Sequence record: MZ189262.1
Strand: one strand, 5' to 3'
Source: Escherichia phage W143
Length of the DNA: 64,000 nucleotides
Positions 4,607 through 60,334 of the stretch are shown here, one piece after another. The position numbers and the translations under genes are program-made. The first letter of the stretch is position 1. Each line of letters begins with the position of its first letter. Under the pieces are notes generated by a model. The model saw nothing but the letters and a program-made list of their open reading frames with translations. It had not been told where the DNA came from and searched no databases.

Positions 4607-4970
4607 ATTTAATGGCTTGAAGAAGACTAATAATTCTCAAGCGGCTTCTTTCATCTTTAACTGTAAAAGAAAGAGGGTCGCCAGATTTCATAGTGATAGT
4701 GCATTCAAAATCAAAATCTTCAGGAACTTCTTCGAAGAAGTCAAATTCTTCATCATAAATTAGAACATTACTCTGAAAACTATGAAGAATTTTTCCATCA
4801 TTTCCAGATGCTGTACTAATCATTGTAACATTATGGCCTTTCATATCTTCAACGATAAATTCACTTGTAGATATTACGGCATTAATAGAACCATTCCTAT
4901 AAATAGAAGAAAGTAGATATTTCTTTTCTTCACCTTCGCGAACACGATATTTCTTACCAATTTTAAACAT
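4599..4970 (-). CDS. hypothetical protein
   Basis: 123-aa ORF in the 39.x/goF region; no motif recognised. Confidence 0.5.
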   Translation of the reverse strand: MFKIGKKYRVREGEEKKYLLSSIYRNGSINAVISTSEFIVEDMKGHNVTMISTASGNDGKILHSFQSNVLIYDEEFDFFEEVPEDFDFECTITMKSGDPLSFTVKDERSRLRIISLLQAIKFE

Positions 4971-15027: not shown

Positions 15028-15546
15028 TTAATAACCTCGGTCTTGACGAGCGAAGTTTTCAGCATTTTTCAGATAATAAAGTTTAAAGATTTCTTCAGCC
15101 GTAAGACCAAGACCTTGGAACATGTTCAGAACGAAATGAAGAATATCAATCATTTCGAATTTAATTTCCAACTGGTCTTGTGGAGACAAATCAGTAATTA
15201 GAGTTTCACGGCGTTCACCATGTTGAGCTTTCCAAGGCTTCCATACTGCAGATGCATCTTTTTCGCCATTGCTCATACCGCCAAGAGAAGTCAGAAGTTC
15301 ACGGAATTCATCGTCAATATAATCTTTCTGATTACGCAGCCAATCAACAACTTCACCAGCAGTAGCCAAATCATCAGGATGACGGTTATATTCAGGTTTA
15401 TCTTTAGCTAAACGAACCTGCAAAGATTTCTGCATATCAAGCATAACCTGCAGCGGGTCTTTTTCATCACCGAGAATATCCCAGTATTCATTTTGAGCTT
15501 TATCAGCGCCTTCGATCAGATGACTACATTCGTTGAAATGTGGCAT
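15028..15546 (-). CDS. 56: dCTP pyrophosphatase gp56
   Basis: 172-aa ORF, MazG-like, at the gene 56 position between soc and gene 61. Confidence 0.85.
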   Translation of the reverse strand: MPHFNECSHLIEGADKAQNEYWDILGDEKDPLQVMLDMQKSLQVRLAKDKPEYNRHPDDLATAGEVVDWLRNQKDYIDDEFRELLTSLGGMSNGEKDASAVWKPWKAQHGERRETLITDLSPQDQLEIKFEMIDILHFVLNMFQGLGLTAEEIFKLYYLKNAENFARQDRGY

Positions 15547-15582
15547 GTTATTTTTCCTTTCAATTCATGGGTTAGTAGATTA

Positions 15583-15607
15583 ATTATACAATAAATATAT
15601 AAAGCAA
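15583..15607 (-). promoter_or_regulatory. MotA-dependent middle promoter (TTGCTTTA, 11 bp, TATAAT)
   Basis: minus-strand MotA box at 15607-15600 and TATAAT at 15588-15583, upstream of gene 56. Confidence 0.55.
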
Positions 15608-15619
15608 TAAGGAGGACAT

Positions 15620-15820
15620 ATGGTACAAAAATTAATGGCACTTGTTAATGCCATCAAAGGTAATAAAAAACGTATAGCTTTTACTATTTCTGCTATGATA
15701 GGAATTTTACTTTGGAATTTTGTTTTATCGCCAGTTGCTATTGCTCATGGCGTTAATATTCCGGTAATTACTCTTGATACATTCGTAGATTTAGCATTTG
15801 CTTTGGTTGGGTTAATTTAA
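15620..15820 (+). CDS. small hydrophobic protein, plus strand
   Basis: 66-aa ORF with two predicted TM segments; strong AAGGAGG Shine-Dalgarno 4 nt before the ATG; convergent with gene 61. Confidence 0.4.
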   Translation: MVQKLMALVNAIKGNKKRIAFTISAMIGILLWNFVLSPVAIAHGVNIPVITLDTFVDLAFALVGLI

Positions 15821-16845
15821 ATCTTAGCATATTTAGATAGCCGCATTTTAGCCATCAACCCTTGGGCAATATTATTTTTCATATATTCCATAATTTGTTC
15901 AGGGGTTGCACCTTCCTTTCTAATCATATCATTAACATCTTTTGATTTCCAGGGAGATTTGTCCCAAAACATAACCCTTTCTCCTGCATCAACTAATTTA
16001 GTCATTCGTTTAATAGTGTCAGGGTGACGAGGTTCATTATCTAAAACCCATACACGTCTATCTTTAAATGGAACAATTTCTAGGTCTAATTGACCACCCG
16101 TAATAGCTATACCATTTTCAATAAAAAGTGAATCTATAGGTCCTTCTAGAACATATACATCACCATCTTTAACTCGTTCAACACCATAGATTTTTGTTGC
16201 CTCAGGATAAGCTTTGATAGTGATATATTTTTGAGGAGCATCTTTCTTTAATGCACGTCCTTGAAAAGACTCAGCTTTTCCATTAGCATTATAAATTGGA
16301 ATAACAAGACGAGGCTCAGGTATTTCCTTTTTATATGTTCCTGGTGCTATACTATTAACTAATTTAGGCCATTCAGTTGTAAACCAAAGATATTTCCATT
16401 TGTCCTTTGGAATACAGCGAGCTTTTACGTATTTTATAATTGGATGGTCTTCCGCCAGTTTATCCAATCTAATGCATGACGGAAGAGATTTAATTATTTT
16501 CTTCTCAGGTTGTTTAGGAAGTTCTTTAGGTTTTTCTACTGGACGACTTTTACCTTTTTCTTTTCTTATTTCAAAGATATACTCACGATATAAATCGGGT
16601 TCAAACTCCTTTAAATATATTCCGATTGGTGCATGATAGTTACAGTTATAACAATGAATATTCCCTTCATTATTATCGCCATAATACCATCCACGGGCTT
16701 TATTTTGGTCGGTTTTTGAATCTCCACAAACCGGGCATCTAAACCGTAATTTAAAAGTTGAACTATTATTTACTTGTGTGAATTTAGGTAAATGAGCTAG
16801 CGCACGATATGCAAACTCATTATCAATCCAAGGTATTGATGACAT
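15817..16845 (-). CDS. 61: DNA primase gp61
   Basis: 342-aa ORF; N-terminal zinc ribbon (CPVCGDS...HCYNC) and toprim motifs (EGPID, LDNEP). Confidence 0.9.
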   Translation of the reverse strand: MSSIPWIDNEFAYRALAHLPKFTQVNNSSTFKLRFRCPVCGDSKTDQNKARGWYYGDNNEGNIHCYNCNYHAPIGIYLKEFEPDLYREYIFEIRKEKGKSRPVEKPKELPKQPEKKIIKSLPSCIRLDKLAEDHPIIKYVKARCIPKDKWKYLWFTTEWPKLVNSIAPGTYKKEIPEPRLVIPIYNANGKAESFQGRALKKDAPQKYITIKAYPEATKIYGVERVKDGDVYVLEGPIDSLFIENGIAITGGQLDLEIVPFKDRRVWVLDNEPRHPDTIKRMTKLVDAGERVMFWDKSPWKSKDVNDMIRKEGATPEQIMEYMKNNIAQGLMAKMRLSKYAKI

Positions 16846-55767: not shown

Positions 55768-55809
55768 ATATACCCCTTTAGTTAGATAAACCTATTTATA
55801 ACTTTTGCA

Positions 55810-59972: not shown

Positions 59973-60334
59973 TACAGACTCTCGGTAAAGGTACGAGCGA
60001 TAACGTCGCGCTGCTGTTCCGGAGTCAGAGAGTTAAAGCGAACTGCATAACCGGATACACGGATGGTCAGCTGCGGATATTTTTCCGGATGCTTAACTGC
60101 ATCTTCCAGAGTTTCACGACGCAGAACGTTTACGTTCAGGTGTTGACCACCTTCAATTTTAACTGTAGGTTGTGTTTCAATTTCAATTTCACGGGCATGT
60201 AAACCGTAGAAAATTTCTGGGTCTACAAAAGAGTCCTCTTTAAAGGTTTTAGAGACAATAATTCGTGCTTGAATACCGTCTTCAAAATAAATAGTACCTT
60301 TATGTGTGCCTTCAAGAATTTGATATGCTTTCAT
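59972..60334 (-). CDS. autonomous glycyl radical cofactor GrcA/YfiD-like protein
   Basis: trimmed to MKAYQILEG; C-terminal half carries the RVSGYAVRF glycine-radical motif and is, from memory, near-identical to enterobacterial GrcA; locally GC-richer DNA. Confidence 0.7.

Follow-up and report, generated by a model that had tools for sequence, protein, structure and literature searches.

Does a short ORF that faces the other way in an otherwise minus-strand early region constitute a gene and, if so, when would it be read and what would its product do? The question arises from the interval between genes 56 and 61 in a window of 64,000 nucleotides, the whole stretch of DNA analysed here, which corresponds to approximately the first 64 kb of a Tequatrovirus (T4-like) genome. 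The original prediction described a 66-aa ORF on the plus strand, and the ORF list places it at 15620-15820 (+), opened by an ATG, closed by a TAA stop and encoding the protein MVQKLMALVNAIKGNKKRIAFTISAMIGILLWNFVLSPVAIAHGVNIPVITLDTFVDLAFALVGLI. Its position between a divergent gene 56 and a convergent gene 61 is likewise borne out by the ORF list and Pfam. To the left, gene 56 (dCTPase/dUTPase; 15028-15546, minus strand), identified from the ORF list, a Pfam dUTPase_2 match and the annotation in relatives, lies 73 nt away (15547-15619); to the right, gene 61 (DNA primase; 15817-16845, minus strand), identified from the ORF list and the annotation in relatives, shares its last nucleotides with the ORF, the two stop codons overlapping in TTAA at 15817-15820. 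The consensus Shine-Dalgarno AAGGAGG that had been pointed out is read from the sequence at 15609-15615 (+), 4 nt 5' of the ATG. Note that AGGAGG followed after 3-8 nt by ATG occurs at only two sites on both strands of the window, one of them being this one. In a survey of ORFs of at least 40 aa lying mostly outside minus-strand ORFs, this was the sole plus-strand ORF with both an ATG and a Shine-Dalgarno, so that in this survey the 64 kb hold no other convincing plus-strand gene, as had been claimed.

We compared the ORF and its surroundings with public records. The 1.9-kb stretch around it has matches in 761 phage records, of which the best is 98% identical. The protein is 100% identical to YP_010071073.1, a hypothetical protein of phage vB_EcoM_IME537 (IME537), and matches phrog_2024 with E=8.5e-31, residues 2-66 aligning on profile positions 1-65 of 65. 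A plus-strand CDS is annotated at this place in close relatives, as RB32ORF030w in RB51, as VR7ORF033w in VR7 and as 'dam.1' in the T4T record HM137666. T4 Dam.1 (HM137666), RB32ORF030w, VR7ORF033w and phrog_2024 are orthologs of the window protein; T4 Dam.1 is 94% identical to it, with the same length and the same position and orientation against gene 61, and nothing substantive differs between the two apart from the context described below. By these comparisons, the ORF is orthologous to T4 dam.1 (RB32ORF030w, PHROG 2024) and represents a functional phage gene. It is already catalogued as a hypothetical, uncharacterised gene family: public phage records annotate it hundreds of times, and the names in the cluster of YP_010071073.1 are all but one 'hypothetical' or 'uncharacterized', more than 150 of them 'hypothetical'. 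The reference T4 records NC_000866.4 and AF158101.6 contain the ORF and leave it unannotated. In the literature, including T4 ribosome profiling and transcription start site work, we found no mention of dam.1 or RB32ORF030w, and a search there for transcript, ribosome-occupancy or proteomic data on the ORF returned none.

The T4 copy (NC_000866 17738..17938, plus strand) lies between dam and gene 61 and coexists with dam. The suggestion that the ORF stands in the place of T4 dam is consequently wrong: T4 has dam together with this ORF, and the window has the ORF alone, dam being absent anywhere in its 64 kb. Judging from the two sequences, dam.1 abuts gene 56 in the window since this phage is without dam. 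The gene 56-gene 61 interval is an insertion hotspot, compare dam and segF in T4. Several close relatives, for example phage JE01 (L002 2049-2699), carry a homing endonuclease gene of ~650 bp between gene 56 and dam.1, and such inserts appear as two-piece matches among the records matching the dam.1 region. Karamvirus EnA02 has at the dam.1 position a 94-aa ORF on the primase strand, devoid of the dam.1 motif (L022 2523-2807), and Kanagawavirus and Moonvirus have both dam.1 and an ORF of 93-97 aa resembling that of EnA02, which in Kanagawavirus records is annotated as MazG or NTP pyrophosphohydrolase.

The length of the ORF alone is not significant in AT-rich DNA, and it is conservation together with codon-position statistics that takes it far beyond chance. 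In Nei-Gojobori comparisons over 16 distinct dam.1 alleles, the window and T4 genes differ at 4, 0 and 11 first, second and third codon positions, respectively, with a dN/dS of 0.095, and two Mosigvirus alleles at 6, 0 and 13 positions with a dN/dS of 0.13. Within Tequatrovirus and within Mosigvirus the ratio ranges from 0.09 to 0.15; between genera, dS is saturated and dN amounts to 0.4-0.5. The pattern of substitutions points to purifying selection on dam.1 in the plus frame with a dN/dS of about 0.1. By tblastn, dam.1 is found in 692 phage records, and 686 of these cover at least 80% of the protein and are intact.

Could this conservation instead be the by-product of minus-strand signals, namely the terminator of gene 61 and the promoters of gene 56 or dam, packed into the spacer between genes 61 and 56, the ORF not being a gene? 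Such signals are found. A pattern scan detected a terminator-like hairpin with a T-run at 15622-15657 on the minus strand, within dam.1 codons 2-13, its 11-pair stem (15657..15632) being followed by TTTTTGT; it is also present in T4, is annotated in SA20RB, and probably ends the gene 61 transcripts. On the same strand, a middle-promoter-like site for gene 56, composed of TTGCTTTA (MotA box), 11 nt and TATAAT, is read from the sequence at 15583-15607 and overlaps the dam.1 leader; SA20RB, a close relative, has the same element annotated as a T4-type middle promoter, and it would serve as the middle promoter of gene 56. The lack of annotation in the reference T4 records also agrees with a non-coding spacer. 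However, substitutions that fall mostly at third positions of the plus frame, with the low dN/dS, are the signature of a translated frame, unlike the product of minus-strand signals, and largely refute this explanation. In Mosigvirus and Dhakavirus, which have the ORF, the hairpin was not found, and it is thus not the cause of ORF conservation. In VR7 the ORF lies ~200 nt away from gene 61, and the motif W-N-x4-P-x5-G-x3-P persists among proteins of 18-27% identity. We therefore regard a non-coding origin of the conservation as highly improbable.

The conservation extends to the layout of the locus. The original prediction had proposed a comparison with the 56-61 interval of related phages, and there dam.1 lies on the strand opposite to gene 61, convergent with it, across nine genera: Tequatro-, Mosig-, Gapriver-, Dhaka-, Gelderland-, Jiaoda-, Marfa-, Moon- and Kanagawavirus. 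The small ORFs located on the opposite strand 3' of the primase gene in Dhakavirus MX01 (66 aa), Gelderlandvirus CGG4-1 (74 aa) and Jiaodavirus 311F (63 aa) encode the proteins with 18-27% identity to the window protein. Across three subtypes (alignment A3, 9 sequences), W32, N33, P38, G44 and P48 are invariant, and the window protein has all five, with the core motif following a basic N-terminal patch. Each of the nine aligned members matches phrog_2024. A profile search returned 117 clusters of 41-74 aa, in which all named or long contigs are T4-like phages, and with the two other subtypes as queries, tblastn contributed a further 122 and 168 records, with Marfavirus, Moonvirus and Kanagawavirus among them; the matches of these subtypes that we inspected adjoin the primase stop. 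Gene 61 itself has tblastn matches in 2374 records. At the gene 61 site of Karamvirus EnA02 and Krischvirus KFS-EC dam.1 is absent, and an exhaustive profile search of 1.84 billion representatives found no distant homologs, returning 6 proteins, all of the same family.

Besides the single-copy arrangement, Gaprivervirus VR7 carries two family subtypes in tandem (L005 1995-2470), of which the second is unannotated and has a frame overlapping the 3' end of gene 61 by ~70 nt, and ESCO47 has two subtypes under consecutive locus tags (proteins P0098 and P0117). In the T6 record AP018814, an ATT stands where all others have the dam.1 ATG (L007, about 2001), which could be a sequencing error, a natural knock-down or a start at Met6. 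Truncated alleles are also found in a few cases, for example P0027, P0029 and P0031, and dam.1 is therefore dispensable at least sometimes. Some product names given to homologs are misleading. We rejected 'putative head morphogenesis protein' in T6 AP018814, a region full of wrong product names where the dCTPase, for instance, is called 'ferredoxin', and we consider 'dCTP pyrophosphatase', carried by the 74-aa homolog of CGG4-1, and 'DNA packaging ATPase' to be annotation errors.

How would a gene so oriented be transcribed? The original prediction reported no clear plus-strand promoter. This stands for the sigma-70 type, of which a pattern scan upstream of dam.1 on the plus strand found no site, and fails for the late type. 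A candidate gp55-dependent late promoter, AATAAATA, the A(-13) variant of TATAAATA, is located at 15590-15597 (+), 11 nt before the Shine-Dalgarno, with a predicted transcript start near 15603; it was recognized from the box match, the depletion of such boxes in the window and its conservation. A promoter of the gp55 type is the most likely one here, and it would be invisible to a search for sigma-70 promoters. T4 late promoters consist of a bare TATAAATA box at -13 to -6 (PMC2988020, PMC1524935). Among 50 listed T4 late promoters, 32 have the perfect box and 9 an A at -13 (PMC2988020), AATAAATA being the commonest variant, and relatives conserve the T at -13 poorly (PMC1524935). The predicted dam.1 promoter has what characterizes a late gene, namely a TATAAATA-type box that precedes the predicted transcript start by about one helical turn, and no -35 element. 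Its box is nevertheless imperfect both in the window and in T4, which is a point against a late promoter.

The heptamer ATAAATA occurs 8 times on both strands of the 64-kb window, as opposed to 40 +/- 6.4 copies expected in shuffles; this roughly five-fold depletion agrees with selection acting against stray late promoters within the early region. Half of the copies (4/8) lie just upstream of an ORF start, those of soc, gene 49, a 70-aa ORF and dam.1. In all 12 lineages tabulated, a late-type box precedes the dam.1 Shine-Dalgarno by 2-14 nt, and the Shine-Dalgarno itself is kept as AGGAGG, AAGGAG or GGAGG. The box is TATAAATA in four lineages (MX01, Marfa, CIP9 and IME523), NATAAATA in six and ATTAAATA in two. 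It is also kept amid unrelated upstream sequence, beside dam in T4, beside gene 56 in the window and in another context in L012. The homology between the window and T4 breaks at 15589-15608, and T4 still has GATAAATA at the equivalent distance within its dam-proximal sequence. The depletion of ATAAATA, the conservation in 12 lineages and the persistence in unrelated contexts, taken together, lift the box beyond a chance match.

In the window, the 73 nt between gene 56 and dam.1 (15547-15619) hold the minus-strand middle-promoter-like site and the plus-strand late box interleaved, AATAAATA falling inside the spacer of the former; this arrangement, along with the absence of dam, is what distinguishes the window locus from that of T4. 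The spacer that holds the late box is unconstrained by the minus-strand promoter itself.

Two known late transcription units of the window offer a comparison. Like dam.1, soc and the late start of gene 49 have a TATAAATA-type box shortly before a Shine-Dalgarno and an ATG, the box being TATAAATA for soc and AATAAATA for gene 49. They differ in orientation: soc and gene 49 share the minus strand with the genes around them, whereas dam.1 occupies the plus strand and converges with gene 61. Both soc and gene 49 are established as expressed late; from its box and leader sequence, we infer that dam.1 is a late gene too, with a transcript starting near 15603. Other late-type boxes were noted. On the plus strand, TATAAATA at 4898-4905, near the goF region, and AATAAATA at 60286-60293 are followed by no ORF with a ribosome-binding site, and may drive late antisense transcripts. 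On the minus strand, a perfect TATAAATA at 55793-55800 stands 25 nt before the 70-aa ORF, which has a GGGG-type ribosome site and is probably another isolated late gene.

The same layout raises the question of whether the locus is mainly regulatory, the late promoter firing into the 3' end of gene 61 to produce an antisense RNA that helps shut off primase late, with the protein secondary. The convergent, stop-overlapping arrangement is kept in most genera, as this explanation would have it, and no plus-strand terminator-like site was found over 2.7 kb downstream of dam.1; a plus-strand terminator annotated at the ORF end in SA20RB was unsupported in our hands (fold z-score -1.09). Purifying selection and invariant residues show, however, that the peptide itself matters, a strong Shine-Dalgarno would be needless for an antisense promoter, and in VR7 another ORF separates dam.1 from gene 61. 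We consider a mainly regulatory locus unlikely and retain a protein-coding late gene. Given the lack of a plus-strand terminator, its late transcript may still run antisense into primase gene 61 as a side effect.

The original prediction took the product for a small membrane protein on the grounds of hydrophobicity, and both the composition and the predicted structure agree. The protein has a GRAVY of 1.25, and its best 19-residue Kyte-Doolittle window reaches 2.01 at residues 23-41. An AlphaFold2 model built on a shallow alignment (mean pLDDT 74.7) contains helices at residues 2-12, 16-42 and 52-63, the second of which is predicted to be a transmembrane helix of 27 residues (approximately residues 16-42). 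The N-terminal part comprises a predicted short amphipathic helix and the basic patch KGNKKR; all five K/R precede the main hydrophobic stretch and both D follow it. By the positive-inside rule, Dam.1 is predicted to be a single-pass inner-membrane protein with a cytoplasmic N-terminus and a periplasmic C-terminus. The invariant W32-N33 and P38 lie in the outer half of the predicted helix, and the predicted periplasmic tail of ~24 residues contains the invariant G44 and P48, a short helix and, in 8/9 aligned sequences, an acidic residue at position 53. Conservation is thus strongest in the outer helix half and in the juxtamembrane loop (WNF...P.A...G...P), whereas hydrophobicity is all that the inner half requires. 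When a polar Asn lies in a transmembrane helix, it usually serves contacts between helices. Together with the selection on the frame, its intactness and its annotation in relatives, the predicted helix upholds the core of the original prediction, a plus-strand membrane-protein gene in an otherwise minus-strand early region.

The N-terminal two-thirds could also be read as a cleavable Sec signal peptide (residues 1-42), in which case the product would be a secreted or outer-leaflet peptide of ~24 residues, HGVNIPVITLDTFVDLAFALVGLI. Read by eye, a basic region and a hydrophobic region are followed by P38-x-A40-x-A42 and then H43-G44, so that a helix breaker stands at -5 and both -3 and -1 are small residues. 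Small residues at these two places are found, again by eye, in most subtypes (AIA, ALA, AAS, AAT, AST), Mosigvirus having L at -3. On the other side, the hydrophobic stretch of ~19-24 residues (about 19-42) has the length of a signal anchor rather than of a short core of 7-15 residues, the region preceding it is helical and 18 residues long instead of short, the AlphaFold2 model gives one continuous helix from 16 to 42, and the invariant W32-N33 falls within the hydrophobic stretch, which is unusual for a disposable signal peptide. The hydrophobic length and the invariant residues inside it favour an uncleaved anchor, and cleavage appears improbable to us.

A small, apparently late protein with a transmembrane helix also evokes a holin, pinholin or antiholin directly controlling membrane permeabilisation. 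UniRef indeed names the OE5505 homolog 'Holin', and in the Tequatrovirus alleles Lys4 separates Met1 from Met6, recalling a dual-start motif. That name is however one label among more than 150 'hypothetical' and is unsupported, and the Met6 feature is absent in other genera. There is no match to a holin family in Pfam or PHROGs, the sole PHROG match being of unknown function; no endolysin gene adjoins dam.1; and the C-terminus is hydrophobic (...DLAFALVGLI) where a holin would have a hydrophilic, charged tail. T4 lysis, moreover, depends on holin T. Lambda S105/S107, phage 21 S68 and T4 holin T are small, membrane-inserted and late, as presumed for dam.1, but in comparison with holins and pinholins Dam.1 has one clear transmembrane helix instead of two or three, no sequence match and no linkage to lysis genes. 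There is little chance, in our estimation, that Dam.1 is itself a holin, and we keep to a single-pass protein anchored in the inner membrane.

Closer in architecture are the T4 RI antiholin and the signal-anchor or SAR-type regulators, in which an N-terminal membrane segment is followed by a periplasmic part, as in the predicted Dam.1, and with which a role at the envelope of T-even phages may be shared. RI has 97 aa with a globular periplasmic domain, whereas Dam.1 has only ~24 predicted periplasmic residues and no detectable similarity to it. The locus also resembles those of type I toxin peptides (Hok, TisB), where a gene for a small hydrophobic peptide lies opposite another transcript: the 3' untranslated region of gene 61 appears to reach the hairpin at 15657-15632, opposite dam.1. 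It differs from them as a presumed phage late gene with its own candidate promoter, and is not known to be toxic or to have a dedicated antitoxin RNA.

Searches for a functional homolog in Pfam, NCBIfam, PADLOC, PDB and BFVD returned none. Pfam gave no match at E<=10 for any of the nine family members, and NCBIfam and PADLOC none to the Dam.1 protein, even at E<=10. A PDB profile match to NqrE, a polytopic membrane subunit (E=0.023), was taken as noise from hydrophobic composition. The BFVD fold search found the protein's own family and two weak matches of ~63 aa, of which the named one, CIP9, is a family member. Rfam had nothing at gathering score in the window, and one microRNA match within 15400-16000 (E=0.53) was attributed to chance.

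Overall, dam.1 is a real gene under constraint; its synteny extends across genera, and a conserved late-type box and a ribosome site precede it. From these features we propose that its transcription would take place in the late phase, running clockwise and counter to the early genes around it, from its own gp55/gp33/gp45-dependent promoter AATAAATA at 15590-15597, the transcript starting near 15603 with a leader of ~17 nt carrying the strong Shine-Dalgarno; the 66-aa product would then insert in the inner membrane as a single-pass protein. Both the late timing and the membrane topology are what we infer from the promoter box and the composition of the protein. Since conservation is concentrated at the outer-leaflet and periplasmic end, Dam.1 may bind, late in infection, some other protein of the envelope, for instance one that takes part in lysis timing, lysis inhibition or exclusion. 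This last step is a guess, as is any late role at the cell envelope or in lysis: nothing links dam.1 to lysis, and its neighbours are genes of replication and nucleotide metabolism. We give a probability of roughly 0.7 to this reading as a whole, a real, constrained, late membrane gene with a guessed role at the envelope.

A bolder version can be formulated, which we hold to be unlikely. Dam.1 would be an overlooked late envelope effector of T-even phages, either a fourth partner in lysis timing or lysis inhibition acting through its Asn-containing helix or the source of a processed periplasmic peptide of 24 residues, and its transcript might silence primase in antisense. Classical genetics would have missed such a gene, since the T4 reference records do not annotate it and the classical deletions do not reach its place between genes 56 and 61.

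T4 is the reference organism of this phage group, and its standard records, NC_000866 and AF158101, omit a gene that is conserved in nine genera. Consequently, dam.1 will be missing from whatever is derived from this annotation, be it a proteomics database, a knock-down library or an expression table. Its absence from the T4 reference together with its conservation in nine genera make dam.1 worth a knockout, and its function could reveal a new late membrane role in phages where lysis control and exclusion were thought to be well mapped.
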